A stretch of DNA of 64,000 nt, from the NCBI RefSeq assembly GCF_009931435.1, contig NZ_CP043414.1. The stretch is one strand, 5' to 3'. This DNA is from Escherichia coli (GTDB taxonomy: Bacteria > Pseudomonadota > Gammaproteobacteria > Enterobacterales > Enterobacteriaceae). The notes beneath the pieces were generated by a model. That model was not told the DNA's origin, made no database searches, and was given only the letters and a program-made list of their open reading frames with translations. Shown here one piece after another: positions 45,468 through 62,854 of the stretch. Within the stretch, counting starts at the first letter, position 1. Every line of letters begins with the position of its first letter. Both the position numbers and the translations under genes were made by a program.

Positions 45468-45504
45468 AAGAGTCATACGTGTCAACTATTTGATAAATAT
45501 TAAA

Positions 45505-46800
45505 TTAATTTTTCATTGCTTCGTTATGGGGCATGGTTGGGGCAAACTCGCTTAACTGTGTATTTAACAAAGCTACCTGTGCATTATTGTTTTCAGACAT
45601 CCATTTTCCGTATACCTGAAATACCATTTGCGCATCTGCATGGCCCATCTGGTTTGCTATAAATGCTGGGTTAGCACCAGCTGTCAGCGACCAGCAGGCA
45701 TAAGTATGTCTCGACTGATATGATTTTCGATGGCGGAGTCCGGCACGTTTTATCGCTGCGTCCCACATCTGCCTTATTGAGTCAACGGTAAAATGGTCAC
45801 CATAATTTTTTACTCTCGCTGACACTTCAGGTTGAAAAACAAAGGTGCATTTATGTTTTTCTGTTCTGCCATACTCTCTGAGGTGAACATCAATGATATG
45901 CTCTTTGCTCAGTCTCGTTAATGTCATCTGACTCCGGAGAGCGTCGATTGCTGGCTTAATAAGATGAATGACCCGATTGGTTCCCGCCTGTGTTTTTGGT
46001 ACCGTGAAACGGTCTTTTGCTAAATTTCTCCTGATCATCATTGTTCCATTTTTCAGATCTATGTCCTCCCATCCAAGTGCACACAGCTCACCAGGGCGAA
46101 CGCCAGTATAAACAGAAACACACCATAAATTTTTGGCTTGCTGATTTCTGCACGCATCGATAAGACGGATGAATTCCTCCCGCGAAAGAGGATCCGGAAT
46201 GGTTCTTGATTCCTTTAATGGCGAGATCCCCTTAAACGGGTTATCTGCCAGGTAACCGTTATCAACACCAAACTGGAACACGGCGTTAAGATTTGTCATG
46301 TAATTATTTACAGTTACAGCCGATCTCCCTGGTTGTGTAACAATATAGTTACTTTTGGGGATCTGGTATCCAGTCAGTAGCTCTTTACGAACCTCCAGTA
46401 ATTTTTCTTTATTAATCGATGAGGCAAGATTTTTTTCACCGATTATGCTCAGGATATTTTTGATGACGGCACGGTATGTGTTGAGTGATGTTTTTGCGAC
46501 TTCAGTTTCTTTCAGTGCCAGAAATTTTTCAGCCAGTTCTTTTATGGTTAAATCTTGTCGGGCCTCACCAAATTTTTCCAGATTGCGTGAGGAGGGAAAC
46601 TGTTTTGCATAGTCGAAAACACCAGTTTTTATTGCGTAACAAACAGAGGCGCGTAGCTCACCTGCAACGCGCCTGTTTTTTGCTGTGTCAGGAACCCCCA
46701 GGTTTTCCCTGACTCTTACGCCTTTATAAACAAACCAGATACGTAATTTCCCTCCATGGTTTTCCACGCCTGTCGGATATTTCATTTCAACTTCTCTCAT
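45505..46800 (-). CDS. int: tyrosine site-specific integrase
   Basis: 431-aa ORF (start possibly at second Met, 46785); C-terminal RHRKSYQSRHTYAC...VYGKW tyrosine recombinase motifs. Confidence 0.9.
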   Translation of the reverse strand: MREVEMKYPTGVENHGGKLRIWFVYKGVRVRENLGVPDTAKNRRVAGELRASVCYAIKTGVFDYAKQFPSSRNLEKFGEARQDLTIKELAEKFLALKETEVAKTSLNTYRAVIKNILSIIGEKNLASSINKEKLLEVRKELLTGYQIPKSNYIVTQPGRSAVTVNNYMTNLNAVFQFGVDNGYLADNPFKGISPLKESRTIPDPLSREEFIRLIDACRNQQAKNLWCVSVYTGVRPGELCALGWEDIDLKNGTMMIRRNLAKDRFTVPKTQAGTNRVIHLIKPAIDALRSQMTLTRLSKEHIIDVHLREYGRTEKHKCTFVFQPEVSARVKNYGDHFTVDSIRQMWDAAIKRAGLRHRKSYQSRHTYACWSLTAGANPAFIANQMGHADAQMVFQVYGKWMSENNNAQVALLNTQLSEFAPTMPHNEAMKN

Positions 46801-46819
46801 TAGTTAGTGTGGCTTTTAG

Positions 46820-47071
46820 TCAAGTAAGATGACGTCTTGGTCTTGCTGATGCCTGGCGCTCAATCCAGCGATCAATTTCTTCCAGGTTGTAAAAGCATGG
46901 ACTGTTATCCCATGGCATACCGTCATGAGCGACATGCTTATATTCCCTTCCTTCCATAAACGATTTTTCCCGGGCCTTTTTTAACGTACCTTTTTTTATT
47001 CCTTTCAGCGCAATTAACTGCTCTTCGGATACCCATTTGCCGGGAGAGACAATCATGATTACTTCGCTCAT
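46820..47071 (-). CDS. xis: lambda Xis-like excisionase
   Basis: 83-aa ORF directly upstream of int; shares the GREY core with lambda Xis. Confidence 0.65.
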   Translation of the reverse strand: MSEVIMIVSPGKWVSEEQLIALKGIKKGTLKKAREKSFMEGREYKHVAHDGMPWDNSPCFYNLEEIDRWIERQASARPRRHLT

Positions 47072-47143
47072 CGATTTCTTTATCTCTTACATCAGACGAG
47101 CGCCGGTTGCAGAATACCAGTCACAACCGGCGACAGTTGAACA

Positions 47144-49615
47144 TTAAGAATCAGCCTGACTCGGGATCAGTTTTTGCCAGATAGCTGAAACGCATTTTGC
47201 CTGGTAACGGGCGTCATCAAGTGCATTATGGCGCTCACCTTCGAATGGAATAGCCGTTCTGGCATCGAAGTCTATGGCTTTCCCCAGCTCAACGATTGTG
47301 CGTACATCGCGATCGTTGTAGTAACGCCACGGGCAGGGGATCCCCTGCCGTTCGTATGAACGGCGCAAAATCGTGTTGTCGAAGTTGGCTCCATTTCCCC
47401 AGACCTGAACAAAAAATTCACCGGAGTTTTCGTCGATAAATTCCCGCAATTGTAACAGTGCATCATCTAACGGGATTTCATCGGTCATAATGGCAGATTG
47501 CGCTTCGCGTGATTGTTTAAGCCACCATTTAATGGTGTCCCGATCAATGACTCCGCCAGCAGTTTCCAGATCGATAGTCTTACTAAATTCCGGTCCCATA
47601 TCTCCGGTTTGCGGATCGAAAAATATTGCACCTATTGAGATAATCGGGGCATCGGGATTTTTTCCCATGGTTTCAAGGTCGATCATCAGATGAATCCCCG
47701 CTCTGCTGGTGGATGTGAGATTATGATGACCGTTCGCCTTAATTAAGGGATCTGACGCCTCGCCAGTTTCACTATCGCTGGCATGATGCTGATTGCCGCC
47801 AGTGTTCTCCTTGTGCTGATGCGCAGTGCCTTCCATTTCCTCCGGATCATTTTCCTGAACTTCAGGCTGATTCTCTCCATCGAATATTTCCTGGTATGTT
47901 GCGTCACCCATCACCGCACCACAATCAGGGCAGTTGCCGCCACCGCTATGACCGCAGGCGGTGCAGATCTTTTCCGGTTCCTGTTGCACTACTGGTTCAG
48001 GTTGTTTCGTTTCTGGCTCGTTTTGTTGCGTATTTGGGCTGTTTTGTTCCGCTTTCTGGTCGTTCTGTTCCGTTTCTTGCTGGTTCTGGTTCACAGAATC
48101 GCGGGTCTGGATCCCCTTAACCCATTTCGGATCATTCGGGTCGCTAATCCCTTCAACAAATTCACCACGTGATACTGCAAGCAGTTCATCGGCGTCAGGC
48201 TGGCTGATATTGGCTGCCTGCATAATTTTGTTTACTTCGTCAGCGGTAACTTTTACTGACCCTGGTTGTGCGGTCGTGTCAGATGCACCAGTATTTTGTT
48301 GTGAACCTGAGTATGTACCGTTTTTGCGGGCGAAATATTCTTCTTTCGTGATTTCAGTAGCCCCAGCAGACAGCGCCTTATCCAGACCAGAAAGTTTGTT
48401 TGCGCGACCGTATTTTTCGCCATCCTTGTCGGTGAAGAGGAAGTAGAACGGCCCCTCACGTTCTACAGATGGTTCGACTTCCACTTTGCATTCGGTTTTT
48501 TCGTTGTCTGGAATTGCCGTTTCCACTGCATCAGTTTCTGGTACTGGCGACGAGAGAGTATCAGTTGCGCTCTGATTTGTTCCTTCATCTTCAAACACGC
48601 CCTTTGTAGTCAGGTATTCAGTAATGTATTTGTTCAGTGCCACAGGGTCTTTGTGAATGTCGATCGGACGTTCACGGACAAGGCCAAAAATAGTCTGGCG
48701 GTCGTAGCGAAGGGCATCAGGCTGTTTGCGCATTGATGCCGAGATACGCTTCCAGTCTTCGCGGTCGTTGTCGATAACTTCATTTTTTGCCCAGCGATGG
48801 ATGCTGCCGTCAATGTTTCCGGCATCTACATCACCAGGCCAGAGAGCGTAGGCCAGTTCGTCATCCAGTGTTTTCCATGTCTGCTTGTATTCGCGATGAA
48901 TGGCAGCAATGACCGGGTTGATTTTTCCTGTTGAATTTTCAGTGTGCTGTTGATTGGCTCTGGCGCGGGCGAGATCAACAACAGACGTGTATTTTCCGGC
49001 TTCCTTGCGTTCACCTTCGCGACGTTTTTTCCAGATGCGCATCTCTGCCTGAATTTCGGGCCATTTGGCACCAGGCTTACATTTATGCTTAACCCACCCG
49101 ATGGCATGCAGCTTAAGCTCCGGATACATAGCGTTAACTTCTGGCATTTTCATCAACGCTTCAACGATATGGCCGTCGAATGTTGCCATGTCTTCCTGCA
49201 ACAATTCCTGTGCGCTAATCACCATATCAACAGTGATGTTTTCACATGTGTGGAACTTAACCATGACAGCGTTCTGTACTTCAGGGGCTAGGTTGTCAAA
49301 AGTGACGTTCATCGGATCGGATTCAGTCTCGACCGGGACAAAGGAAGCAGACGCCTCATCCCAGCGGTTTTCCTGCATATATTCAGCATCCCAGGAATCG
49401 AGGGCAGGGCGGGGTATACCGGGTTTATCCTCGCAAACAAGAAATTTATAAGCGCAGTCCTGAGCAGCCGGATAATGTTCCAGGAATTGCCAGTGAAATT
49501 TTGCGCGGGCGCGACGTTCATCACCGGCTTCAATGGCAGTGGCTACAGCGACGGCACCTTCTTCCTTTATTGCCTGTTCGTCCGGAATGGCGGCGCAAAT
49601 AAAGACTTTACTCAT
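47144..49615 (-). CDS. prophage exonuclease with C-terminal DEDDh 3'-5' exonuclease domain
   Basis: 823-aa ORF; MIDLETMG (Exo I), WGNGANFD (Exo II), H-x4-D (Exo III); CTACG...CPDCG zinc knuckle; Q/E/N-rich linker. Confidence 0.8.
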   Translation of the reverse strand: MSKVFICAAIPDEQAIKEEGAVAVATAIEAGDERRARAKFHWQFLEHYPAAQDCAYKFLVCEDKPGIPRPALDSWDAEYMQENRWDEASASFVPVETESDPMNVTFDNLAPEVQNAVMVKFHTCENITVDMVISAQELLQEDMATFDGHIVEALMKMPEVNAMYPELKLHAIGWVKHKCKPGAKWPEIQAEMRIWKKRREGERKEAGKYTSVVDLARARANQQHTENSTGKINPVIAAIHREYKQTWKTLDDELAYALWPGDVDAGNIDGSIHRWAKNEVIDNDREDWKRISASMRKQPDALRYDRQTIFGLVRERPIDIHKDPVALNKYITEYLTTKGVFEDEGTNQSATDTLSSPVPETDAVETAIPDNEKTECKVEVEPSVEREGPFYFLFTDKDGEKYGRANKLSGLDKALSAGATEITKEEYFARKNGTYSGSQQNTGASDTTAQPGSVKVTADEVNKIMQAANISQPDADELLAVSRGEFVEGISDPNDPKWVKGIQTRDSVNQNQQETEQNDQKAEQNSPNTQQNEPETKQPEPVVQQEPEKICTACGHSGGGNCPDCGAVMGDATYQEIFDGENQPEVQENDPEEMEGTAHQHKENTGGNQHHASDSETGEASDPLIKANGHHNLTSTSRAGIHLMIDLETMGKNPDAPIISIGAIFFDPQTGDMGPEFSKTIDLETAGGVIDRDTIKWWLKQSREAQSAIMTDEIPLDDALLQLREFIDENSGEFFVQVWGNGANFDNTILRRSYERQGIPCPWRYYNDRDVRTIVELGKAIDFDARTAIPFEGERHNALDDARYQAKCVSAIWQKLIPSQADS

Positions 49616-49707
49616 TTTGTTTTACCTCATTACAGATTTAAGGGTGAACAAATCCCTGCCATTGCTGGCATATAAGAATGAAATCGGATGTTTATTACGG
49701 AACTGTT

Positions 49708-49899
49708 TTAAAGACCTGCCGGGATTTCGTTATTATCCTGGTGAATAACTTTATCGACCGGGTAACAGTTACCGGGAATTTTCTGTTCGGTTGCTGCAGT
49801 CACACACTCCTGCATTGTCCTGTGAACACTGACTGCAATATCAACTGGCTCTCCGGAAACAAGAAAAACTGTCAGAACAAGTGCAAATGCTGTATTCAT
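49708..49899 (-). CDS. ydfD: small lysis-inducing protein YdfD-like
   Basis: 63-aa ORF from MNTAFALVLTVFL (hydrophobic N-terminus); start overlaps dicB stop in ATGA. Confidence 0.6.
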   Translation of the reverse strand: MNTAFALVLTVFLVSGEPVDIAVSVHRTMQECVTAATEQKIPGNCYPVDKVIHQDNNEIPAGL

Positions 49900-50084
49900 T
49901 GCCAGCATCCTTTTTGTATCGGACGTAAACGGGCCAACATTGAAAGAATGCATATTTTATTTAATAGCTCCCGTTCGTGTTTTCTCTTGTTAATGGCATC
50001 TTCAGTAAATACAGGGTTACTGATAGTGACACCAATTTCAAAACAACCTTCAGACGTATTAACGTTTGGTAATAACGTTTCCAT
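49896..50084 (-). CDS. dicB: cell-division inhibitor DicB
   Basis: 62-aa ORF METLLPNVNTSEGCFEIGVTISNPVFTEDAINKRK..., recognised DicB. Confidence 0.85.
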   Translation of the reverse strand: METLLPNVNTSEGCFEIGVTISNPVFTEDAINKRKHERELLNKICILSMLARLRPIQKGCWQ

Positions 50085-50255
50085 TATCGCGTCCTCAACA
50101 ATGAATTTTGTGATGCGGTGCCTGGTGCTTCCAGGTGACGTTAACCAGTTAACAATTAACGCCGGATACAGAGAATCCACCCATAACACTGTTTTTGGTT
50201 TTAACTGTTCCGCGTGCGCTCAGCCGCATTCACCGCATCACAAAATTCACTTTAA

Positions 50256-50311
50256 AAAGGGCGGCAGAGCAGTCACGGAGTAAAACTGATACCGCCAAAC
50301 GTCACCAGAAA
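50256..50311 (-). ncRNA. dicF: DicF small regulatory RNA
   Basis: Minus strand reads TTTCTGGTGACGTTTGGCGGTATCAGTTTTACTCCGTGACTGCTCTGCCGCCC plus T-run, matching DicF as recalled; about 170 nt upstream of dicB. Confidence 0.75.
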
Positions 50312-50652
50312 ATTGATAACAGAGGGCGTTGCAGCGGGGTTGTCACTTAAGCGTATGGTCAACCTGACAACCCGGTGTCCTCAACGGGGGAAGGAATAAC
50401 CCCGCCATACTTACCGCCGCGCCATTTCGCGGATTGCCACAACCGGAAGCGCACGGTCGACGAAAATTTAACGACAGGCTATCTATGAACCAGCTACCTC
50501 GCCGTGCGCTTTCGCGTTATGGTCTGACTTTTCAGGGAAATATCCTTTCAGTAAACTGTCAGTGCCGGATGCTCACCCGTGTCCGGCGCAAGCACTCCAC
50601 CTTACCCGTGGAGAACTCCTTAATTACCAACCTTAGCTTCGTTGGTTAGCTA

Positions 50653-50871
50653 TTAACGCGGGTATGTAATCATTCTGGCAATGGTTAATGCCGCTGCTTT
50701 TTCCAGATTGGTGATATCCTGCTCCAGAGAGGACAGATTTTCAGCCTGCTTAGCCCTGACTTCATTAGCCCATTTCAGATCCTGCGCTGCATTAATTTTC
50801 TGGTGCATCCACTCATAAAGTTCATCATTGGTATAGTCTGGCGCGATGATGACGGGTTCTCGTTTCTGCAT
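50653..50871 (-). CDS. ydfC: YdfC-like prophage protein
   Basis: 72-aa ORF in the dicB operon position. Confidence 0.6.
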   Translation of the reverse strand: MQKREPVIIAPDYTNDELYEWMHQKINAAQDLKWANEVRAKQAENLSSLEQDITNLEKAAALTIARMITYPR

Positions 50872-50900
50872 ACTGATTCCTCGCGGTGCTGTTTCGCTTA

Positions 50901-51029
50901 TCAGCCATTAGATTTTGCCGAACTGGAAAGCGCCTGTTTAAATTCGTTGAAGCTGTGAGCTTCTTCGCCTTCGGCAAGGCCTTCGAAGTATTCTTCGTAA
51001 GCCTTTTCCATGATTGTGTCGAAATCCAT
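50901..51029 (-). CDS. ydfB: YdfB-like small acidic protein
   Basis: 42-codon ORF (MDFDTIMEKAYEEYFEGLAEG...) found by manual translation; below ORF-track cutoff. Confidence 0.5.
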   Translation of the reverse strand: MDFDTIMEKAYEEYFEGLAEGEEAHSFNEFKQALSSSAKSNG

Positions 51030-51030
51030 A

Positions 51031-51186
51031 TCACCCACCTGAATTTCTTTCCAGCCAGCGACGCGCTCCAGATTCGGTTTTAAACGTTTTGCTTTTGGTA
51101 TACGTCATTGCGGTGAACGTACCGTCCTGGTTGGGGAACACGCCACATACCAGAGATTCGCTGTTGCCAAGATTGATAGTATCCAT
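51031..51186 (-). CDS. ydfA: YdfA-like prophage protein
   Basis: 51-aa ORF from MDTINLGNSESLVCGVF; first gene downstream of the repressor. Confidence 0.6.
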   Translation of the reverse strand: MDTINLGNSESLVCGVFPNQDGTFTAMTYTKSKTFKTESGARRWLERNSGG

Positions 51187-51451
51187 GCTGACCTCATTTC
51201 CCCTTAACGCCGGGGTAGCGGAACAAAAACCTGCTGCATAGTTATTAAAGTTGTACCCTGCCGTCATGTTCTTACGCCTCGGGCTGGCTACTTAACCCCT
51301 GACCACTGCCTGGTAACTCGAAGTATTGCCCTGCATTCTGTGGAGCGGGGTGAGTTGGTATGAAAAGAAGGATACCCATAGGTATTTAAAAAGTAAATAC
51401 CCATGGGTGACTTTTTGCAGTGTCTTAACTGGTGACTAGTTGTTTGGTGAG

Positions 51452-51871
51452 CTATGATGCGTTTTGTGCTTTCTTTTTACGGATTTCTTCGTAGATCATA
51501 TTGTAATACTGTTTTTTCTCTTCAAGAGTTTTTAATAAGTTATCCGCTTCACTTTCTGGCAGTTCGTCTAAGAGATCTAAAAAAATACGTTGTCGTGGCG
51601 TTAGAACCCTTGTTTCATAACTGGAGGCTGTGTTCGTTGATGATGAAACGATACCATCCATCCATCCCCGGGGTAACCCAAAGGACTCTTCGATAATCTC
51701 CACCATATCATCAGCGATCCGTTTTTTTCCCTTTTTCCCCTCTGGGTACAACATTCTTGATACATAAGAAGGCTCGCGCCCGATCTTTCTGGCCACGTTA
51801 ACCGCTTTACCATCGCATTTCTCATCACGAATTTTGATGAGTTGCTGTCGTCTAAATTCATATTTGTCCAT
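51452..51871 (-). CDS. prophage repressor, DicA-like C-terminal domain with distinct N-terminal HTH
   Basis: 139-aa ORF; HTH-like VARKIGREPSYVSRM; C-terminal LDLLDELPESEADNLL resembles DicA; no SD before ATG. Confidence 0.7.
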   Translation of the reverse strand: MDKYEFRRQQLIKIRDEKCDGKAVNVARKIGREPSYVSRMLYPEGKKGKKRIADDMVEIIEESFGLPRGWMDGIVSSSTNTASSYETRVLTPRQRIFLDLLDELPESEADNLLKTLEEKKQYYNMIYEEIRKKKAQNAS

Positions 51872-51971
51872 AGGTAAATAATAGATGCGATTACTGCAAG
51901 GTAAACAACCTGTGGGTATTGACTTTTGTTTACCTGTAGGTATTCTTTGCTGTGTTTACTAAGGAGTAGCT
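51872..51971. promoter_or_regulatory. divergent promoter/operator region of the immunity switch
   Basis: AGGTAAATAA (51873), AGGTAAACAA (51899) and inverted TTGTTTACCT (51927) repeats around TTGACT; AAGGAG RBS for cro-like gene. Confidence 0.5.
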
Positions 51972-52253
51972 ATGGAAGAATTAAGAATATTTCTCAATTC
52001 TCTTTCGTCAGATGAACAGCGTATGTTTGCATGCGAGTGTGGTACCAGCATCGGTTATCTAAGAAAGGCATTGAGTAAAGGTCAAGTGTTAGGGGCATCG
52101 TTATGTGTCCTTATTGAGCGAGCCAGTAATGGTGAAGTTACACGTCAGCAACTAAGGCCTTTTGATTGGATGAATATTTGGCCCGAGCTGGAAGATACCA
52201 AAACGTTAACACAACCACTTTCTAGGAGCTTGATTCATGAAAATCAAGCATGA
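51972..52253 (+). CDS. Cro/YdaS-like HTH regulator
   Basis: 93-aa ORF divergent from repressor with AAGGAG RBS. Confidence 0.65.
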   Translation: MEELRIFLNSLSSDEQRMFACECGTSIGYLRKALSKGQVLGASLCVLIERASNGEVTRQQLRPFDWMNIWPELEDTKTLTQPLSRSLIHENQA

Positions 52254-52662
52254 ACACATCCGCATGGCGATGAATGCCTGGGCGCATCCGGACGGTGAAA
52301 AAGTTCCGGCAGCTGAAATAACCAGGGCTTATTTTGAACTGGGTATGACGTTCCCAGAACTGCATGACGACAGCCATCCGGAAGCCCTGGCTCGCAATAC
52401 CCAGAAAATTTTCCGCTGGGTAGAGAAAGACACCCCTGATGCAGTTGAAAAAATTCAGGCGTTGTTACCAGCGATCGAAAAGGCAATGCCACCTTTGCTG
52501 GTGGCCAGAATGCGCAGCCACAGTTCAGCTTATTTTCGGGAGCTGGTGGAGACGCGGGAGCGACTGGTGAGAGACGCTGATGATTTTGTCGCAGTGGCAA
52601 TCGCCGGTTTCAATCAGATGAACCGTGGTGGCCCGGCAGGAAATGCTGTGGCAGTGCATTGA
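52237..52662 (+). CDS. YdaT-like (CII-like) regulator
   Basis: 141-aa ORF starting MKIKHEHI as in Rac YdaT (recalled); 17-nt overlap with preceding gene. Confidence 0.55.
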   Translation: MKIKHEHIRMAMNAWAHPDGEKVPAAEITRAYFELGMTFPELHDDSHPEALARNTQKIFRWVEKDTPDAVEKIQALLPAIEKAMPPLLVARMRSHSSAYFRELVETRERLVRDADDFVAVAIAGFNQMNRGGPAGNAVAVH

Positions 52663-52733
52663 GTGATAATAGCCATATCGAATCGCTTCCGGCAACTCGT
52701 GAGTAAAAAGATTCGGTATCAGAAGAGGTGAGT

Positions 52734-53804
52734 ATGGCTAACGCCTGGCTCAGATTATGGCATGACATGCCAAATGACCCTAAGTGGCGAACAATTGCCA
52801 GGGTGTCAGGGCAGCCAATTGCAACAGTGATGGCAGTGTATATCCACCTCCTGGTGAGCGCGTCACGAAATGTCACGCGAGGTCACATTGATGTCACGAC
52901 AGAAGATTTGGCAAGTGCGCTCGACGTGACAGAAGAGGTAATTGATTCAATTTTGCAGACGATGCAGGGGCGGGTACTTGATGGTGATTTAATCACTGGA
53001 TGGGAAAAACGCCAGGTGCTTAAAGAGGACAACGGCAATATTTCGCAAACCGCAAAATCTCCTGCAGAGCGCAAGAGGGCGCAGCGAGAGAGGGAAAGAA
53101 AGCGGGAACAAAATGGCGATTGTCACGGCGCATCACGAAATGTCACGCACATGTCACGACGAGTCACGACAGATAAAGATACAGATAAAGATACAGATCA
53201 AGAAGATCAAAACACTATGGTCCATGGCGTAAAAAACGCTACGAACCAGGCAGGGGATGTTCAGACCGTCAATCCTGGTCAGCCAGCAGGCACGACACCG
53301 GAAGCCGATTCAGCGTATGCGCTGAAACCCGATTCGGGCGCTGTGCAGCAGGTGATGACCCAAAGGCCGGAACAATCACACCAACTGCAGCAGCCTGAAG
53401 CCGATTCCGCCATTCAGCGGGAAGCCGATCGGGTAGTCCCGGAAAACACCGGGCTGTCTGTGGGACGAGTGGATTATCCGGATGTGTTCGAACAGGTCTG
53501 GCGGGAGTACCCGTTGCGTGCCGGAGCAAACCCGAAGAAATCCGCTTTCAGTGCCTGGAAGGCCAGATTACGCGAGGGGGTGCCACCAGAGGCCATGCTG
53601 GATGGCGTGAGGCGTTACGCAAGATACTTGGCGGCTACCGGGAAAACGGGAACGGAATTTGTTCAGCGAGCGACGACGTTTTTTGGACCGGACCGGAATT
53701 TTGAGAACCCCTGGTTGCTCCCGGTAAGCGGCACGAACAACCAGCGTTGTGTGAATCATATTTCTGAACCGGATAACGAAATTCCGCCGGGCTTCAGGGG
53801 GTAA
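52734..53804 (+). CDS. replication-module protein (YdaU-like, putative initiator)
   Basis: ORF 52728..53804, ATG at 52734 after AGAGGTGAG; N-terminal WLRLWHDMPNDPKW; contains iteron clusters and an acidic DKDTDKDTD linker. Confidence 0.6.
   Translation: MANAWLRLWHDMPNDPKWRTIARVSGQPIATVMAVYIHLLVSASRNVTRGHIDVTTEDLASALDVTEEVIDSILQTMQGRVLDGDLITGWEKRQVLKEDNGNISQTAKSPAERKRAQRERERKREQNGDCHGASRNVTHMSRRVTTDKDTDKDTDQEDQNTMVHGVKNATNQAGDVQTVNPGQPAGTTPEADSAYALKPDSGAVQQVMTQRPEQSHQLQQPEADSAIQREADRVVPENTGLSVGRVDYPDVFEQVWREYPLRAGANPKKSAFSAWKARLREGVPPEAMLDGVRRYARYLAATGKTGTEFVQRATTFFGPDRNFENPWLLPVSGTNNQRCVNHISEPDNEIPPGFRG
52861..53169 (+). repeat. iteron-like repeats (putative prophage origin) inside the replication gene
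   Basis: GTCACG-type motifs at about 52862, 52872, 52882, 52893 (inverted at 52925) and 53122, 53132, 53142, 53153, 53163; TCACGAAATGTCACGC occurs twice. Confidence 0.55.
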
Positions 53805-53844
53805 GTGTTAATTTCTGGTCATGAGGTAATTTTCAGGAGGGCTT

Positions 53845-54270
53845 GTGGCAAAAGTTTTTACACAAGAAGAGCGGGAAAAAATTAAAGGGCAGGTTGTTGA
53901 ACTCGTACGCCAGAGTGGGCGCGAGACGTTACGACAACTGGAAACTAAAACTGGGGCAACAAGATATCTGATGAGCGTTCTGGCCAGAGAGCTGGTTGCC
54001 AGTGGCGATGTATACAACTCTGGTTACGGGTTATTCCCGTCTGAACAGGAGCGTAAGGACTGGCAAAATGCCCGTAAAAAGCTCTCAAGGGCAAAGCTGA
54101 AGAAACCATCTGCGGTTGATCCGGACCTTATCTGGTCATTACCTGACGGAGAAATACGTCGCTACGATAGTTGTCTAAACATAATCTGTCGCGAGTGCCG
54201 GAAGAGCGAAGTTATGCAGCGCATTATGGCATTTTATCAGGGAAATGTTAGGTATTTTAGACGTTACTAG
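53845..54270 (+). CDS. hypothetical basic protein (141 aa), replication-module associated
   Basis: GTG start 7 nt after CAGGAGG; GC similar to prophage backbone; no family recognised. Confidence 0.55.
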   Translation: MAKVFTQEEREKIKGQVVELVRQSGRETLRQLETKTGATRYLMSVLARELVASGDVYNSGYGLFPSEQERKDWQNARKKLSRAKLKKPSAVDPDLIWSLPDGEIRRYDSCLNIICRECRKSEVMQRIMAFYQGNVRYFRRY

Positions 54271-54497
54271 ATTAAAGGGCATTAGTTCAGATATGCATTG
54301 ACATTTTCATGGCACAAGGTAGAGCTAGCGTGGTTGTTCGCTTTGTGCCAAGAGTGGTCATTGATAATATTTTGGTGGGTTACATCTGTCAATGTTTCAG
54401 GTGATATGATATACAAATAGCCAGACTTAGACTGGCATGCTGTTTATTTTTATATTATGGGTGTGCCACATGGATTTAAAACTTATTGAGATATGAC

Positions 54498-55523
54498 ATG
54501 GATACTTTTCATAATATTTTGCTTGAGCACATAGACAGCCTTTTAAAAGAGAGACTTGATTTATCTGGTGACGCTGATATCGAAAAAGAAATTAATAACC
54601 TAATTCCCAAAATAGTCATTGTCGTTAAAAAATCTCTTATTGGCTCGGCCAATGCAATGCTTAGAGAACATCGTTCTCTTTGTGATGAATTTGTTGAGAG
54701 AAATATTTCAAGATGGGCAGAGGCTTTTGATTTGCTCGAAACACTTATAGTGATATGCACGGAGTCCGGTGAAGAGTTCAATCGTTCTTATAGACCACAA
54801 GCTGCCTCTGAAGAGGATGTGGTTTTTGATTTAGTCGTTCGGCATCACGCAAGAGCTTGCCACATCGCCAACGAAATTTTGTGTCTCTTAAAGAATGGAT
54901 TTGCAGATGCTGCCCAAGCGAGATGGCGAGCACTTCATGAGGTAGCAGCCACAGCTATGTTTATAGCAAAGCATGGAAAAGAGTGTGCTGAGCGCTTTTA
55001 CTACCATGAAGTGGTTGATTCATATACTGGAATGTTGGAACACAAAAAGTACGAGCACCGGTTAGAAGCAAAAGGTCCAACTATTGAAGAAATAGCTGAG
55101 TGCAAAGTTCAATTTGATCTATTAATAAAAAAATACGGCAAAAAATATGCAGATAATTATGGGTGGGCATCTTATATTTTCCCTAACCATAATAAAGTGG
55201 GGTTTGGAGCTATTGAGAAAGATGTTCAGTTAGAACACATGCGCCCTTATTATAAGTGGGCGAGTCAGAATGTACACACCGGTTCCAAGGCAATGAGAAA
55301 TAGGCTTGGTCTCTGTGAAACTGGTGATGATATATTATTGGTCGGGCAAAGTGATTCAGGAATGGCTGATCCAGCCCATGCTACTGCTATTAGTTTGATG
55401 CAGATTACTGTGACACTTTTATTCTTAAAACCAACCATTGATCATGCCGTCATTTCAAAAATAATACAGGATTATTCTGATGAGATTGGAAATGTATTTC
55501 TTAAAATTGATAAGGGTAATTAA
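54498..55523 (+). CDS. orphan AT-rich hypothetical protein (341 aa from ATG; 345 aa from TTG at 54486), function unknown
   Basis: Uninterrupted 1-kb ORF; visibly AT-rich versus flanks (about 38-40% GC by eye); no TM segments, no P-loop; no recognised homologue. Confidence 0.7.
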   Translation: MDTFHNILLEHIDSLLKERLDLSGDADIEKEINNLIPKIVIVVKKSLIGSANAMLREHRSLCDEFVERNISRWAEAFDLLETLIVICTESGEEFNRSYRPQAASEEDVVFDLVVRHHARACHIANEILCLLKNGFADAAQARWRALHEVAATAMFIAKHGKECAERFYYHEVVDSYTGMLEHKKYEHRLEAKGPTIEEIAECKVQFDLLIKKYGKKYADNYGWASYIFPNHNKVGFGAIEKDVQLEHMRPYYKWASQNVHTGSKAMRNRLGLCETGDDILLVGQSDSGMADPAHATAISLMQITVTLLFLKPTIDHAVISKIIQDYSDEIGNVFLKIDKGN

Positions 55524-55905
55524 AAATTGGAAAAGTGATAGTATATTCTTGTTTTTTTACTGGTAATTAAATGTTTTTAAAGTTACTAGTTCACACCTAT
55601 CGAACGTCCGGTCTTCGCCCAAAGCGGACTAGAAGGTTAGCTTGCGTCGGATTTGGCGTATTTAAAGAATCGCTGGTGGTTACTGGTTGTTGTGTTCCAT
55701 TTCTACAGAACAAAATCACAGAAACTATACCCAATAGTTGTATCTCATCAATGATGAGAGAGCCTCATATTTATCAGGACTGGTGTACGTCCAATACAGG
55801 AGGTTGTCGTGCTGGTTCTCAAATGTGCGCTGGCTATTGCAGCTGTAATGGCAATTTATTGTCTTGCTGTTGTTCTTATGGATCGCCTTTCTGATTGATT
55901 TTATA

Positions 55906-56109
55906 TTGGCCAGGTGACGGGAGTTAAGTAGAATGGCTGCGGGTGCTTGAGGCTATCTGTCTCAGGCATGAACACCAAAGGCAGATAGAGAAAAGCCCCA
56001 GTTAACATTACGCGTCCTGCAAGACGCTTAACATTAATCTGAGGCTCAATCTATGAACGGCAAATCTAGGTTAGCCTCTTACGTGCCGAAAGGCAAGGAG
56101 AAGCAGGCT
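55906..56109 (+). promoter_or_regulatory. hok promoter and 5' leader
   Basis: TTGGCC-17 bp-TAGAAT; leader GCGGGTGCTTGAGG (55939-55952) complementary to 3' CCTCAATGCACCCGC (56315-56329), consistent with hok fold-back pairing. Confidence 0.5.
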
Positions 56110-56265
56110 ATGAAGCAGCAAAAGGCGATGTTAATCGCCCTGATCGTCATCTGTTTAACCGTCATAGTGACGGCACTGGTAACGAGGAAAGACCTCTGCG
56201 AGGTACGAATCCGAACCGGCCAGACGGAGGTCGCTGTCTTCACAGTCTACGAACCTGAGGAGTAA
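56110..56265 (+). CDS. hokD: Hok/Gef-family type I toxin
   Basis: 51-aa MKQQKAMLIALIVICLTVIVTALVTRKDLCEVRIRTGQTEVAVFTVYEPEE, near-identical to K-12 HokD/RelF as recalled. Confidence 0.9.
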   Translation: MKQQKAMLIALIVICLTVIVTALVTRKDLCEVRIRTGQTEVAVFTVYEPEE

Positions 56266-56333
56266 GAGACTTGGCGAGGGAGAAATCCCTCGCCACCTCT
56301 GATGTGTCAGGCATCCTCAATGCACCCGCACTT

Positions 56334-56358
56334 AACCCGCTTCGGCGGGTTTATTTTA
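56334..56358 (+). terminator. intrinsic terminator of hok mRNA
   Basis: AACCCGC-TTCG-GCGGGTT hairpin followed by TATTTTAT. Confidence 0.7.
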
Positions 56359-56723
56359 TCTGTAAATATTTTTATAAAAATAATGCCCACACACAGCATA
56401 AAACAAAAAGTATCACAGATAAAAAAGGAGCGTAATGTGCAGATTTGTTGTTTTCCATATTTACTCACTTTAACATAATCAATATTGATATGGTTGTTGT
56501 TTCGGTGGTTTCAAACGAGATGTTATGGTGATCTGGTAAAATTGCATAACATTAAAATTTAATTTATCTAATCGCTTTTAATAATAAGCGTTGTGTTTAT
56601 CCCAATAATCTGTTGTTTGACTTTTATTCCATTAATGTAGGGGCTTTACACTGGAACCAGTTTATTTATACTTTATACGCCAGCCTGAACAACTGGCACC
56701 TGCTGCGCCAGCAGAGACAACCG

Positions 56724-57002
56724 ATGGCGCACGATACCAAATTACACAATTCTGATGATTCTGCCGTCTTTGCCAGCAGGTGCGGACGGCGTTTTCATGC
56801 ATTCAAATCGGACTGGTTCCAGCATCCACCATGCACTGAAGAGCAGGCTGAATGGATAATTCAGTGTTACCGCAGGCGCGGATACGAGGTTAAAAAAGCC
56901 CTTAGCCTCGACTACCGTCACTGGATAATCTCAGTCAGATTGCCTTACTCCGAACGCCCACCGCGTCCGTCCCACACATTCCAGCAACGCATCTGGAGGT
57001 AA
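56724..57002 (+). CDS. rem: Rem-like prophage protein (start uncertain; ORF opens at 56613)
   Basis: ORF upstream of ydfU in the K-12 Qin rem position; start chosen at first ATG. Confidence 0.45.
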   Translation: MAHDTKLHNSDDSAVFASRCGRRFHAFKSDWFQHPPCTEEQAEWIIQCYRRRGYEVKKALSLDYRHWIISVRLPYSERPPRPSHTFQQRIWR

Positions 57003-57003
57003 C

Positions 57004-58053
57004 GTGCGGGTATTACTTCGACCTGTTCTGGTACCGGAACTCGGGCTGGTGATCGTTAAGCCGGGCCGTGAATCCATGCCGGTATTCCACAATACCCGGT
57101 TACTGGTGGAGCCGGAACCGAAAAGCATGCGTAATCTGCCGTCCGGGGTCGTTCCTGCCGTTGGCCAGCCGCTGGCGGAAGACAAAACATTGCTGCCGTT
57201 TTTTAGTAACGAACGGGTGATTCGTGCTGCTGGCGGCGTTGGCTCATTGTCTGACTGGCTATTACGTCATGTTACATCCTGCCAGTGGCCTAATGGCGAT
57301 TACCATCACACTGAAACAGTCATTCACCGTTATGGTACCGGCGCAATGGTGTTGTGTTGGCACTGCGACAACCAACTGCGTGACCAGACATCGGAATCAC
57401 TGGAGCTGCTTGCTCAACAAAATCTGACAGCATGGGTGATTGACGTCATCCGTCACGCAATAAGCGGTACGCAGGAGCGGGAATTATCTTTGGCTGAATT
57501 ATCCTGGTGGGCGGTCTGCAATCAGGTGGTGGATGCACTACCTGAGGCTGTATCGCGTCGTTCGCTGGGATTACCAGCGGAAAAAATCTGCTCGGTGTAC
57601 CGCGAAAGCGACATCGTACCGGGAGAGCAGACCGCCACCAGCATATTGAAACAACGCACAAAAAATCTTGCACCGTTGCCTTACGCCCACCAGCAACAAA
57701 AACTACCACAGGAAAAGACGGTGGTAAGCATCACCGTTGATCCAGAGTCTCCGGAATCTTTCATGAAGCTGCCTAAACGTCGCCGCTGGGTTAAGGAGAA
57801 ATACACACGTTGGGTTAAGACACAGCCGTGTGCTTGCTGCGGTATGCCAGCCGACGATCCGCATCATCTGATTGGTCACGGGCAGGGCGGAATGGGAACA
57901 AAAGCACATGATCTCTTTGTGTTGCCTTTGTGCAGAAAGCATCACAACGAGCTGCATACGGATACAGTGGCATTTGAAGAGAAGTATGGCTCCCAACTGG
58001 AGCTGATATTTCGTTTTATCGATCGCGCGCTGGCAATTGGCGTACTGGCGTAA
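57004..58053 (+). CDS. ydfU: YdfU-like protein (DUF968) with C-terminal HNH-like Cys/His motif
   Basis: 349-aa ORF, GTG start; CACCG...DDPHHLIGHG...CRKHHNELH. Confidence 0.8.
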   Translation: MRVLLRPVLVPELGLVIVKPGRESMPVFHNTRLLVEPEPKSMRNLPSGVVPAVGQPLAEDKTLLPFFSNERVIRAAGGVGSLSDWLLRHVTSCQWPNGDYHHTETVIHRYGTGAMVLCWHCDNQLRDQTSESLELLAQQNLTAWVIDVIRHAISGTQERELSLAELSWWAVCNQVVDALPEAVSRRSLGLPAEKICSVYRESDIVPGEQTATSILKQRTKNLAPLPYAHQQQKLPQEKTVVSITVDPESPESFMKLPKRRRWVKEKYTRWVKTQPCACCGMPADDPHHLIGHGQGGMGTKAHDLFVLPLCRKHHNELHTDTVAFEEKYGSQLELIFRFIDRALAIGVLA

Positions 58054-58066
58054 GTGGAGAACGAGC

Positions 58067-58819
58067 ATGAACCTTGAAGCCTTACCAAAATATTACTCCC
58101 CAAAATCTCCAAAATTGAGCGATGACGCTCCAGCGACAGGCACCGGTTGTTTAACAATTACGGATGTAATGGCAGCGCAGGGGATGGTGCAGTCGAAAGC
58201 ACCACTTGGGTTGGCCTTATTTCTGGCAAAAGTTGGTGTTCAGGACCCTCAGTTTGCGATTGAAGGCCTGCTAAATTACGCGATGGCACTGGATAACCCG
58301 ACATTGAACAAATTGAGTGAAGAAATCCGGTTACAGATTATTCCTTACCTCGTGAGTTTTGCCTTTGCTGATTACTCCAGGTCTGCGGCAAGTAAGGCTC
58401 GCTGTGAGCATTGTTCAGGTACGGGATTTTATAATGTATTGCGCGAAGTGGTGAAACACTACAGACGCGGGGAATCTGTAATCAAGGAAGAATGGGTGAA
58501 GGAACTATGTCAGCATTGCCATGGTAAGGGCGAAGCCAGCACAGCGTGCAGAGGGTGTAAGGGTAAAGGGATTGTTCTGGATGAAAAAAGAACCCGGTTT
58601 CATGGCGTACCGGTATATAAGATTTGTGGGCGTTGTAATGGAAACCGGTTTAGTCGTTTACCGACCACGCTGGCACGACGTCATGTCCAGAAGCTGGTAC
58701 CAGACCTGACCGATTATCAGTGGTATAAGGGGTATGCGGACGTCATTGGTAAACTGGTAACAAAGTGCTGGCAGGAAGAAGCATACGCGGAAGCGCAATT
58801 GAGGAAGGTGACGAGATAA
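58067..58819 (+). CDS. quuQ: late-gene antiterminator Q-like protein
   Basis: ORF 58037..58819; start at MNLEALPKYY (250 aa); four CxxC zinc-finger repeats. Confidence 0.85.
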   Translation: MNLEALPKYYSPKSPKLSDDAPATGTGCLTITDVMAAQGMVQSKAPLGLALFLAKVGVQDPQFAIEGLLNYAMALDNPTLNKLSEEIRLQIIPYLVSFAFADYSRSAASKARCEHCSGTGFYNVLREVVKHYRRGESVIKEEWVKELCQHCHGKGEASTACRGCKGKGIVLDEKRTRFHGVPVYKICGRCNGNRFSRLPTTLARRHVQKLVPDLTDYQWYKGYADVIGKLVTKCWQEEAYAEAQLRKVTR

Positions 58820-58850
58820 ATGATTTTTGCTGAAGATGGCGACATGATGT

Positions 58851-58879
58851 TTGCATTTTTCAAAAAATATGGATAAAAT
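58851..58879 (+). promoter_or_regulatory. candidate late promoter (pR'-like)
   Basis: TTGCAT-17 bp-TAAAAT, about 30 bp after Q stop and 50 bp before a strong terminator. Confidence 0.35.
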
Positions 58880-58926
58880 TTTTTCAACGATGGGCTTTGT
58901 ATACCCGACGTTAAGAAAAAGTAGAA

Positions 58927-58955
58927 AACCCGCTGATGAGCGGGTTTTGTGCTTT
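58927..58955 (+). terminator. intrinsic terminator after Q (tR'-like)
   Basis: AACCCGCT-GATG-AGCGGGTT stem followed by TTGTGCTTT. Confidence 0.7.
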
Positions 58956-59240
58956 AAATGGGGCAATGGTAATGTTGAATCTCATCCCGGGACTCATGTC
59001 TGTTAACTTATTATTTAGCTGGTGACTTGGTTATTTGCCTGATGTTTAAAATGTTTTCTTCCAGTACAATGCCCCTAAACACAATGAGTCTGCTTATTAT
59101 ATTATTAGCAGAGCTATTACGGCCAAAGTACAGCATAAGCTTTTAAAGCCAATCAACCAGTCATCAAGACAGACGGGGTTATTCATAAAAACTCTCCATG
59201 TGTGATCCGATGGGGCCTGAAATTAAAGCTTTAATATAGC

Positions 59241-59453
59241 TCATGAAAGGTAAACATTGGCAGCTGAAGGGCCACGCAGACCATTTATCCGGCAAAATTC
59301 CACGCGTAATCCGGTGGTAATTTCTTCTGCATCGCGGAGATTGAGCGCTGAAACATGAAGCTGGACATCGATACGACCATCGGATGGGGTGATAAGACCC
59401 TTGCCGCTTTTGCCGTCAAAGGTTTTGACAATTCCTGTCATTTTACGGGACAA
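59241..59453 (-). CDS. cspF: cold-shock-domain protein CspF-like
   Basis: 70-aa CSD ORF divergent from cspB. Confidence 0.85.
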
Positions 59454-59753
59454 AAAAATTCCTTAATACTGATAACTTGGCGCACTATACACACGTTCCT
59501 GAAGAAAGCTATAGTTTTTTGATGGGGTTGAAGATGGCTGGATGTCTAAAATAAACATTGCTTCATATGTTCAACTATGCGTTAATGATTGCGTCGGTTT
59601 GAAGAACAGACGATATACGAAGTAGTTTACTAAAGCAGTTCTCATTTCAGGTGTTATTCACTTATTCCTTCTTTGAGTCTCTCCAATTAAGTACGAAGTC
59701 GTTTCTGTTATGCAAACCATTTATGCCGAAAGGCTCAAGTTAAGGAATGTAGA

Positions 59754-59969
59754 ATGTCAAATAAAATGACTGGTTTAGTAAAATGGTTTAACGCTGATAA
59801 AGGTTTCGGCTTTATTTCTCCTGTTGATGGTAGTAAAGATGTGTTTGTGCATTTTTCTGCGATTCAGAATGATAATTATCGAACCTTATTTGAAGGTCAA
59901 AAGGTTACCTTCTCTATAGAGAGTGGTGCTAAAGGTCCTGCAGCAGCAAATGTCATCATTACTGATTAA
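59754..59969 (+). CDS. cspB: cold-shock protein CspB
   Basis: 71-aa ORF with RNP1-like KGFGFI motif; about 300-nt upstream leader typical of cold-shock genes. Confidence 0.9.
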
Positions 59970-60250
59970 AATTCATCGCTCGTCTGTATACGATAACGAA
60001 GAAGGCTGATGCCTGAGTAGAGATACGGACAGAGTAGTGAATATTGGATTTCTTTAATAAAAATTAAGGAGGTCCAATACATGAAACAATGGCCAGCATA
60101 TTTGGCAAAATCTTAATCAGGAAAAGTATGCTAACCATTGTGGTGAAGTGCAGGTTTGCTGCATGAATAGTTTTACAGCAGAAGCTAACTGCTGGCATGG
60201 CAAAACAAAGTGCGTAAGTGGATGACTCCCACAAAAAGCACCACAATCTC

Positions 60251-60275
60251 AAACCCGCTCAGGCGGGTTTTTTAT
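60251..60275 (+). terminator. intrinsic terminator
   Basis: AAACCCGC-TCAG-GCGGGTTT hairpin followed by T4. Confidence 0.7.
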
Positions 60276-60332
60276 TATCTGCTTTAAATATATTATTAAA
60301 ATATAAAAAATACTTGTTACTAATAAAATCAA

Positions 60333-60503
60333 TCAGGCTACAGCTTTAAGATTTGTCTGGAATACTTTGTTGCAATGAGGGCAGATCAAAAGGGCACCTT
60401 TTTGTACTCTTGAAAAACTGTGTTCTGACTCTTGGGTGCAGTTTGGGCAGGAACATTTAACGAGATAATTACGGCGTGATTTTGAGTCTTTACGTTCTGA
60501 CAT
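60333..60503 (-). CDS. ydfK: YdfK/YnaE-like zinc-ribbon protein
   Basis: ORF 60333..60554; start at MSERKDSKSRRNY (56 aa) with AGGAAA RBS; CSCPNC...CPHC. Confidence 0.6.
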   Translation of the reverse strand: MSERKDSKSRRNYLVKCSCPNCTQESEHSFSRVQKGALLICPHCNKVFQTNLKAVA

Positions 60504-60722
60504 AGGCTTTTCCTGTATAAATGGCCGTATACAGTACACTAAATATGAAAACATTTCTCGTATTATTATTTTATATATGACTTTCTTTCAAAATAATTAC
60601 TCACATTTTTAATGTGTATGTTTCTTTAGCGCCGTTGAGAACAGCGTGTGCTGTCAAAACTACCCCGTAGACTCCGATCTTTTCAAACATATTGCACCAT
60701 CCGTGTACATCGGGGTGAGGAT

Positions 60723-60938
60723 ATGAAATCAATGGATAAGTTAACAACAGGTGTTGCCTATGGCACATCGGCGGGTAATGCTGGTTTCTGGGCATTGCAG
60801 TTACTCGATAAAGTAACTCCGTCACAGTGGGCTGCAATCGGTGTGCTGGGTAGCCTGGTTTTTGGCCTGCTGACGTATCTGACAAATCTTTATTTCAAGA
60901 TTAAAGAAGACAGGCGTAAGGCTGCGAGAGGAGAGTAA
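60723..60938 (+). CDS. essQ: phage 21 S-type pinholin (dual-start)
   Basis: ORF 60648..60938; start at MKSMDKL (Met1/Met4) after GGGGTGAGG RBS; 71 aa resembling S21 as recalled. Confidence 0.85.
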
Positions 60939-60942
60939 TCCA

Positions 60943-61250
60943 ATGACTCAAGACTATGAACTGGTCGTGAAAGGAGTCCGTAATTTTGAGAATAAAGTTA
61001 CGGTAACTGTAGCCTTACAGGACAAAGAACGCTTTGACGGTGAAATTTTTGACCTGGATGTCGCCATGGACCGTGTTGAAGGAGCTGCGCTGGAGTTTTA
61101 TGAGGCAGCAGCCAGAAGGAGCGTCCGGCAAGTCTTCCTGGAAGTAGCAGAAAAATTGTCAGAAAAAGTTGAGTCTTATCTGCAGCATCAGTACTCCTTT
61201 AAGATTGAAAATCCTGCCAATAAGCACGAGCGTCCTCATCATAAATATAT

Positions 61251-61254
<4 letters not shown>
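60943..61254 (+). CDS. ydfR: YdfR-like protein (DUF1327)
   Basis: 103-aa ORF between holin and endolysin. Confidence 0.7.
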
Positions 61255-62278
<1,024 letters not shown>

Positions 62279-62641
62279 GGTAATATTAAATCGGAACATT
62301 TACATCGCGGAATGTAAAATTTAAATAAAAAGGACTCTTCCATGAGCCAAAATTCCTGAAATCTTAAGGGTAAGATAAAAGGTCTTAATCAGAATGACAC
62401 GTTATTATTAATAAATAAAGCTATTCTTTCATTGCTGTGTTTTTCTTTACAAAAGTAATCCTTGCTATGGGTGGTTAATCATGCGTTAATGGTGTTCTGG
62501 TTTGTTACAAATTTATCTGAAGCAGTCATTGTTATAATTTTATTATTTGTACCTCTTGAGATTTCCTTGTTGGTTTTTCTCTCTGATATTTTTTTTCGGA
62601 CCATTCTGCCCAAGGGCTAATTTCTTCAAAAGGTAATAATT

Positions 62642-62854
62642 ATGTCTAACAAAATGACTGGTTTAGTGAAATGGTTTAACCCTGAAAAAGGTTTTGGTTT
62701 CATCACGCCGAAAGATGGCAGCAAAGATGTGTTTGTCCATTTCTCAGCAATTCAGAGCAACGATTTCAAAACATTAACTGAGAATCAGGAAGTTGAATTT
62801 GGTATTGAGAACGGACCTAAAGGCCCTGCCGCTGTTCATGTAGTGGCGCTTTGA
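62642..62854 (+). CDS. cspI: cold-shock protein CspI
   Basis: 70-aa CSD ORF with KGFGFI motif and AT-rich leader. Confidence 0.9.

Follow-up and report, generated by a model that had tools for sequence, protein, structure and literature searches.

Exonuclease VIII (RecE), encoded by the Rac prophage of Escherichia coli K-12, carries its nuclease head behind an N-terminal region of 560-600 residues whose function is not known, and the N-terminal part of the full-length protein is required for linear-linear recombination (PMC11611040). The head is a PD-(D/E)XK 5'-3' nuclease (PF12684), the N-terminal module is of the PF06630 type, and recT overlaps the gene downstream. Here we describe an 823-residue relative of RecE encoded in a stretch of 64,000 nucleotides of E. 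coli DNA (contig NZ_CP043414.1 of assembly GCF_009931435.1; hereafter the window). Like recE, this gene lies in an early-left operon beside the excisionase and integrase genes (xis and int), and its product shares with RecE a homologous helical middle domain, a GISDPNDPKW motif, a QPEPVVQQEPE linker, a four-cysteine knuckle and an acidic tail. Unlike RecE, however, it has a YdfE_N module at the N-terminus and a DEDDh domain, predicted to act 3'-5', at the C-terminus, and xis and int, instead of recT, follow the gene.

Rv2179c (RNase AS), the founder of Pfam family PF16473, is a poly(A)-specific mycobacterial RNase. EcD, a plasmid-borne, stand-alone E. coli homologue of the phage T4 exonuclease DexA, digests T4 DNA, degrades DNA containing 5-hydroxymethylcytosine (5hmC) and protects against T4 (Kang et al. 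2025, PMC12153337). A survey of lambdoid phages (Genome Res 2025, PMC12315714) reports DnaQ-like 3'-5' nucleases within Rec modules and defines a 'Tritos' class, which has a nuclease and many Chi sites, lacks an annealase (SAP), a single-stranded DNA-binding protein (SSB) and an anti-RecBCD function, and is proposed to exploit RecBCD-Chi.

A DEDDh head on a RecE-related scaffold

The features recognized in the gene are the following (aa, amino-acid residues; pLDDT, predicted local distance difference test; dN/dS, ratio of nonsynonymous to synonymous substitution rates between alleles).

47144..49615, minus strand: whole coding sequence, 823 aa, ATG start, one uninterrupted open reading frame
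49316..49615, minus strand: domain 1, aa 1-100, alpha/beta, part of the YdfE_N module (AlphaFold2, AF2, model)
48998..49315, minus strand: domain 2, aa 101-206, helical, part of the YdfE_N module (pLDDT 94-98; dN/dS 0.12)
48596..48883, minus strand: domain 3, aa 245-340, five-helix, the 'mid' or YdfE_C region (AF2; dN/dS 0.08)
48311..48460, minus strand: domain 4, aa 386-435, small beta-beta-alpha-beta-alpha domain (GPFYF...GRANK...EITKEEY; dN/dS 0.03)
48122..48181, minus strand: conserved short linear motif LLAVSRGEFVEGISDPNDPKW, aa 479-498, within a low-confidence linker
47966..48091, minus strand: Q/E/N/P-rich heptad array, aa 509-550, 21-nt repeats of variable copy number
47918..47965, minus strand: CxxC-x7-CxxC knuckle CTACGHSGGGNCPDCG, aa 551-566, putative zinc site
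47741..47917, minus strand: acidic linker, aa 567-625, about 82% DNA identity to K-12 recE
47177..47692, minus strand: DEDDh (DnaQ-like, Rv2179c-like/DexA-like) 3'-5' exonuclease head, aa 642-813, Pfam PF16473

An earlier note on this DNA had assigned a DEDDh exonuclease domain to the C-terminal part of the protein, and the domain search that it proposed bears this out. PF16473 (Rv2179c-like 3'-5' exoribonuclease domain) matches aa 642-813 over nearly the whole profile (positions 2-177 of 177) with E=6.6e-67 and 225.1 bits, above the gathering score (cut-off 27), and the motifs fall in the DEDDh fold family, not in a different fold. Pfam also gave a weak RNase_T match, and PADLOC just a weak match to a generic Cas-associated DEDDh model. 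The motifs are MIDLET (aa 644-649; D646 and E648), WGNGANFD (aa 739-746; D746) and HNALDDA (aa 796-802; H796 and D801); all five catalytic residues are present, are invariant among 13 alleles, and align to the catalytic D7, E9, D119, H186 and D191 of T4 DexA. DexA (8KEL/8KEN, E=1.3e-6) was the only solved relative found in a phmmer search of the PDB sequences, which returned no Rv2179c chain at E<=1. As judged by its residues, the head is catalytically intact, and its dN/dS is 0.18-0.27; 'exonuclease' is a prediction from domain content. A candidate internal start, M644, which would yield a head-only isoform, is preceded by just a weak Shine-Dalgarno-like GGGGA.

The kinship with RecE lies ahead of the head. 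Of the NCBIfam RecE model (NF007259, an equivalog), only positions 270-603 match, to aa 245-626 with E=4.7e-81, and the score of 273.1 bits is far below the curated cut-off of 1269. BLASTP against K-12 RecE aligns aa 262-625 (E=2e-60), with the strongest conservation in aa 472-625, a stretch that holds LLAxSRGEFVxGISDPNDPKWVKGIQTRD, QPEPVVQQEPE, the knuckle and the acidic tail. In blastn searches against K-12 recE, identity was 90% over query aa 475-516 and 82% over aa 524-624, and the DNA homology stops at gene nt 1874 (window position 47742), which is the head-swap junction. Neither PF06630 nor PF12684 matches the query, whereas both match K-12 RecE. In phage vB_EcoS-813R8, the counterpart of this gene shows 94% identity over the whole stretch behind aa 452, but has an N-terminus of the RecE PF06630 type. 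So, from the limits of the recE homology and the exchanged N-terminus of 813R8, the protein is shown to be a mosaic of three pieces, in which aa 1-452 form a YdfE-type N-module, aa 453-625 the shared linker and aa 626-823 the DEDDh head. The middle piece, which Rac RecE has as well, is acidic and for the most part disordered.

The linear motif within this linker follows the pattern LAxxRGE[FY]VxG[IV]SDPxDPKW and is kept in relatives of every head type, K-12 RecE included; the shorter form G[IV]SDPxDPxW was found in 24 of the 49 long family representatives, spanning all head types. In the motif alignment, the residues L, A, R, G, S, D, P, D, P, K and W do not vary; a search for related loci with this alignment gave mainly close E. 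coli relatives. The motif looks like a docking motif for some partner.

The heptad array follows. The earlier note had described repetitive TTCTGG/TTCTGT DNA here and suggested that it could drive length variation. TTCTGG occurs three times and TTCTGT once in 47980-48110, and this 131-nt segment holds four of the eight TTCTG of the gene (0.42 expected from the gene's own density). Tandem Repeats Finder reported a 21-nt period in 4.0 copies (48002-48085), and an independent repeat search found three 23-nt copies at spacings of 21 and 42 nt. The encoded Q/E/N-rich stretch (aa 510-548, nt 47972-48088) reads in heptads, in protein register, as NQNQQET/EQNDQKA/EQNSPNT/QQNEPET/KQPEPVV/QQEPEKI. Compared with the 823-aa form, alleles of 816, 817, 830 and 831 aa carry indels of exactly 7 aa in the array, and these do not all fall at one site: QPEPVxQ or KAEQNSP is missing, or EQNGQKA or QNSQNAL is added. 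Among 118 cluster representatives the array measures 35 aa (21), 42 aa (93) or 49 aa (3), with no other length. That of K-12 RecE is two heptads shorter than the array in the window. Because the alleles vary by whole heptads, and at several sites, the comparison of homologues supports the idea of repeat slippage.

The zinc knuckle proposed in the same note stands as a conserved Cys4 motif, with zinc binding putative: C551, C562 and C565 are invariant and C554 is almost so among the 13 alleles, and the same knuckle is present in K-12 RecE (CNACGQTGGDNCPDCG). It was recognized in only six of the 49 long family representatives.

The N-terminal 500 residues had been described as free of obvious motifs. 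This holds for motifs that can be read by eye, but not for the structure, since the region contains four predicted folded domains in addition to a RecE-homologous stretch. A first AF2 model, based on the 13 near-identical alleles, had a mean pLDDT of 36.7 and was uninformative save for aa 386-435; it was replaced by a model on a diverse alignment of 31 sequences (21-60% identity), in which the mean pLDDT rose to 86.2 and the four domains are separated by low-confidence linkers. Domain 3 is common to RecE-family proteins of every head type. Domain 4 has a pLDDT of 80-84 in the model from the shallow alignment and of 95-97 in that from the deep one; in the phmmer module map, K-12 RecE lacks it. 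Between alleles, dN/dS is 0.03-0.13 in the four scaffold domains versus 0.39-0.60 in the linkers, the heptad array and the acidic tail, which independently supports the modelled domain boundaries; the N-terminal domains are under purifying selection. Homologues 90-95% identical to the protein have precomputed matches to PF27430 (YdfE_N) and PF27432 (YdfE_C), and the N-terminal domains appear, from these matches, to correspond to the two families. A search of aa 1-640 against 1.84 billion representative proteins found only 249 relatives, from which the 31 sequences of the diverse alignment were taken, and the scaffold family is thus a narrow one.

Exchange of heads and partner genes

In the module map of the long representatives, all four pairings of YdfE_N or PF06630 with DEDDh or PD-(D/E)XK occur. 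A third head, with the signature KKSLTDAxKKALSxLGFSADV, is carried by about a dozen representatives (P0139, P0167, P0129, P0133, P0186, P0217, P0151, P0184, P0238, P0250, P0189 and P0256). At full length it has no Pfam match, and searches against the PDB with a single sequence and with a profile gave nothing significant. Its stand-alone homologues, however, are 45-47% identical, some of them are named Rad52/Rad22 family proteins, and the two that were tested exceed the Pfam Rad52_Rad22 cut-off; the third head is therefore taken to be a Rad52-type annealase. The PHROGs label 'exonuclease' on these Rad52-headed proteins (phrog_2489, phrog_7838) is probably a mis-annotation inherited from the scaffold. 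At one locus with a Rad52-type head on the scaffold (L007), the next gene is a Sipho_Gp157 homologue.

Two further arrangements were seen. A fourth C-terminal tail ('...QQLTIAALxGxCANPA...', phrog_26058) ends P0125, P0259, P0264 and P0134 and has no recognizable domain; perhaps it is to these proteins that the phage survey (PMC12315714) refers as 'RecE-2 proteins lacking a nuclease domain'. In P0197 (703 aa), the RecE N-terminus and linker are fused in frame to RecT, with the break inside the zinc knuckle, which recalls the deletion events that activate recET.

The heads differ in the genes beside them. An overlapping RecT-family gene accompanies the PD-(D/E)XK head in six of six loci (Rac, L008 and four viral loci; the gene of L008 matches PF03837 with E=2e-36). 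In contrast, a same-strand scan found no RecT- or Rad52-like open reading frame beside the DEDDh head in 70 viral loci, nor at the window, APEC O78, 813R8, mEp460, L009, L010 and L011 (0/77 in total), and in the window no annealase gene lies between the exonuclease gene and xis-int. This pattern suggests that the unit of exchange is the head plus its partner. The DEDDh head takes the place of a PD-(D/E)XK head together with the recT cassette, and the protein is therefore not one half of an exonuclease/annealase pair of the RecET type.

A Chi octamer (GCTGGTGG) lies within the gene at 47705..47712 on the plus strand (gene nt 1904), 30 nt beyond the swap junction. It is found at the same position in seven of seven alleles, including those of phage Tritos and of the chimera with a RecE N-terminus in phage 813R8, and could mark or promote the head-swap junction.

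Prophage setting and distribution

Among the large genes of the dicB early-left operon, in a Tritos/Qin-like lambdoid prophage at rspB, this one comes last, and its place downstream of dicB-ydfD and upstream of xis-int agrees with the early-left position given in the earlier note. Its neighbours are as follows.

50259-50310, minus strand: DicF small RNA (Rfam RF00039, 76.7 bits), upstream of dicB; K-12 Qin and phage Tritos have it in the same place
49896-50084, minus strand: dicB, upstream member of the same leftward operon
49708-49899, minus strand: ydfD, upstream member of the same leftward operon
46820-47071, minus strand: excisionase gene (xis), directly downstream of the exonuclease gene
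45505-46800, minus strand: integrase gene (int), downstream, beyond xis

Pfam confirms DicB, DUF1482 (YdfD), DUF1391 (YdfA) and the excisionase, and ydfD, dicB, DicF, ydfC and ydfA are the only genes between the nuclease and the repressor. A scan of 46.7-52.1 kb for promoters and terminators gave counts no higher than those of shuffled sequence. In E. coli APEC O78, the order next to rspB is ydfA-ydfB-ydfC-dicB-ydfD-exonuclease-xis-int, and the gene annotated 'exonuclease' there is 99.8% identical to that of the window. In K-12 the same site is occupied by the Qin prophage, in which ydfE, an IS2-disrupted pseudogene, matches the first 767 nt of the window gene with 94.8% identity and, unlike it, is devoid of the linker and head. 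As judged from this match and site, the window gene is the intact form of ydfE.

The gene is common and ordinary, and has already been named: RefSeq calls its homologues 'exonuclease' or '3'-5' exoribonuclease domain-containing protein', the PHROGs family phrog_2082 ('exonuclease') covers the full protein (profile positions 1-822 of 823), with further separate families for the N-terminal 257 aa and for C-terminal parts, and Pfam recognizes the head. Of 5426 complete E. coli genomes, 4787 (88%) have a match, at a median of two places each, and 3533 keep 80% or more of the gene; many fragments and truncated alleles exist. Viable phages with the gene include mEp460_ev081, Evi, Tritos, HannyBb, the PPompW phages and PhiR42_1. 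Searches of the literature around Rv2179c, PF16473, ydfE and DEDDh anti-defence proteins of phages found nothing on this protein. In a prophage of E. coli YD786 (L058, locus 2205-2719), the immunity region has been lost and dicB borders directly on a truncated replication-side gene, yet the block of exonuclease, xis and int has stayed intact. The late region of the prophage in the window contains a sok antitoxin RNA of a hok/sok-type locus (hokD region; 55941-56115, plus strand) and two cspA-type thermoregulator 5' untranslated regions (59593-59985 and 62496-62881, both plus strand).

Possible functions and their meaning for RecE

Phage Tritos has an order of int, xis, the 823-aa gene, ydfD, dicB and DicF that is identical to that of the window, and its protein is 87% identical over aa 1-638. 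Like the Tritos-type module, the early-left operon of the window has a nuclease but neither an annealase nor an SSB nor an anti-RecBCD gene. Chi seems abundant as well: the part of the prophage that falls within the window (18.5 kb, 45500-64000) contains seven sites (five on the plus and two on the minus strand), as against seven in 45.5 kb of host DNA, a density about 2.5 times higher than that of the flanking host DNA. Phage Tritos has nine Chi sites on the top strand and two on the bottom strand. The Chi density, the counts in Tritos and the intragenic Chi all agree with the RecBCD-Chi picture of the Tritos class.

A stand-alone homologue of the head, 56% identical to it, is encoded between the SSB gene and abc2 in Salmonella phage epsilon34 (L140, 1272-3352), in a packed module of Rad52, SSB, DEDDh and Abc2 genes, and is the DnaQ-type nuclease of epsilon34 cited in the survey (PMC12315714). 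The protein is annotated 'exodeoxyribonuclease VIII', though it has no RecE-type domain. Other stand-alone DEDDh copies adjoin xis-int and are without recombination genes. As far as the main text of the survey was available, it does not describe the chimeric architecture of RecE scaffold and DnaQ head or the rule of head exchange.

Our preferred explanation, to which we give slightly less than an even chance, is that the protein is an exonuclease for DNA 3' ends in Chi-rich phages without an annealase, where it would serve RecBCD-dependent processing of ends. The DEDDh head would remove nucleotides from DNA 3' ends, in the 3'-to-5' direction and depending on Mg2+, like T4 DexA and other DnaQ-like enzymes. 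Scaffold and linker motif together would act as its tether, to a partner or DNA structure that is the same for RecE and for the relatives with a Rad52 head. During lytic growth the head would trim the 3'-tailed ends of phage DNA, and the trimmed ends could then be used by the host in RecBCD-Chi-RecA recombination. RecBCD requires near-blunt ends, and single-strand exonucleases can prepare such ends. This role seems the likeliest because these phages have neither an annealase nor a RecBCD inhibitor of their own and are rich in Chi.

Several points weigh against it. ExoI and other 3'-5' exonucleases destroy 3' tails and thereby usually inhibit recombination, a point that is also raised in the survey (PMC12315714). 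The Pfam family of the head is named for an RNase. The Chi count covers a partial prophage, the remainder of which is outside the window, and the annealase scan covered the gene's own strand. Moreover, the loci surveyed are closely related E. coli prophages, and for this reason 0/77 does not represent 77 independent events. The function itself is inferred from sequence and context.

An alternative, which we consider unlikely, is a defence of the HREX type, in which the DEDDh head would selectively degrade the 5hmC DNA of T-even phages and so protect the host from superinfection. EcD provides the precedent in E. coli (PMC12153337), DexA is the nearest solved relative of the head with the same DnaQ-like DEDDh fold family and conserved catalytic residues, and the stand-alone relatives of the head, like EcD as described, start at MID(L/T)ET. 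A benefit to the host would also fit the presence of the gene in 88% of the genomes, its intact state in degraded prophages such as that of YD786, and purifying selection. However, the proposed 5hmC-recognition residues of DexA, W152 and D169, align to Y766 and A785 and are not clearly conserved in the head, in a register that is uncertain because the identity is just 26%. DexA also has extra loops that the head lacks. As computed, the alignment places D718 at the position of the tetramer residue D90; shifted by one residue, it places A719 there, like A78 of EcD. EcD is a stand-alone protein that starts MIDTET, whereas the head in the window is fused behind a scaffold of 640 aa. The EcD cloning primer is absent from the window, and its 17-mer gave 44 matches among genome contigs, all in unrelated taxa, against about 35 expected by chance on our own estimate. 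Finally, the gene lies in a repressor-controlled early operon with dicB, which is not a typical moron or defence position, and the PADLOC match is weak and generic.

That the head is instead an RNA exonuclease, trimming RNA 3' ends like RNase AS and altering the stability of host or phage transcripts early in infection, is improbable. The strong match extends over the length of the PF16473 model, and the operon also encodes the regulatory small RNA DicF; the RefSeq name 'exoribonuclease', however, derives from the name of the Pfam family only. The structural search retrieved the DNA exonuclease DexA and not Rv2179c, the heads that replace it on this scaffold both act on DNA, one as an exonuclease and the other as an annealase, and the context of the head is DNA recombination, with the epsilon34 homologue sitting in a DNA recombination module.

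We likewise see little probability in a split recombinase, in which the protein would process ends in trans, as RecE does, for an annealase encoded elsewhere, for example the RecT of a co-resident Rac. Such a role would fit the scaffold, linker motif and putative zinc knuckle in common with RecE, the need of full-length RecE for its N-terminal part (PMC11611040), and the median of two matching places and the many prophages in E. coli genomes. But the predicted 3'-5' polarity would destroy, not create, the 3' tails that an annealase needs; recT strictly accompanies the PD-(D/E)XK head only; and Tritos and mEp460_ev081 carry the gene as free-living phages with no annealase annotated in the regions read. 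Least probable is a functionless relic that hitch-hikes in defective prophages and slowly decays, as the IS2-disrupted ydfE and the many fragments and truncated alleles might suggest, given that 80% or more of the gene is retained in 3533 of the 5426 genomes, every folded domain has a dN/dS of 0.03-0.27, the catalytic residues are invariant, and viable phages carry the gene.

Beyond end trimming for RecBCD, our preferred explanation, a wider proposal, which we regard as possible but doubtful, is that the N-terminal two thirds of RecE and the YdfE-type equivalent form a general delivery scaffold for interchangeable DNA-end enzymes. With its folded domains and a GISDPxDPKW docking motif in an acidic tether of variable length, the scaffold would address one common target in host or phage, and heads would be swapped at a fixed junction with a conserved Chi; the DEDDh version would either adapt Chi-rich lambdoid phages without an annealase to the host RecBCD, or double as an EcD/HREX-like nuclease against phages with modified DNA. 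Retention of the scaffold and linker motif across nuclease heads of opposite polarity, or annealase heads, argues for an autonomous targeting role. If this holds, the enzymes delivered would be a 5'-3' exonuclease with RecT, a 3'-5' DEDDh exonuclease and a Rad52-type annealase.

In short, beyond a gene that was already annotated, the head-swapping scaffold is what makes the locus of interest. The gene is a natural experiment on RecE, the workhorse of recombineering, and the exchangeable-head RecE/YdfE scaffold makes the unexplained N-terminus of RecE experimentally approachable, with the linker motif supplying a defined bait peptide (LLAVSRGEFVEGISDPNDPKWV). In a widespread class of Chi-rich lambdoid phages, a predicted 3'-5' exonuclease is the sole gene of recombination type, and its role may lie in phage recombination or in defence against T4, the latter as reported for a related E. 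coli enzyme.

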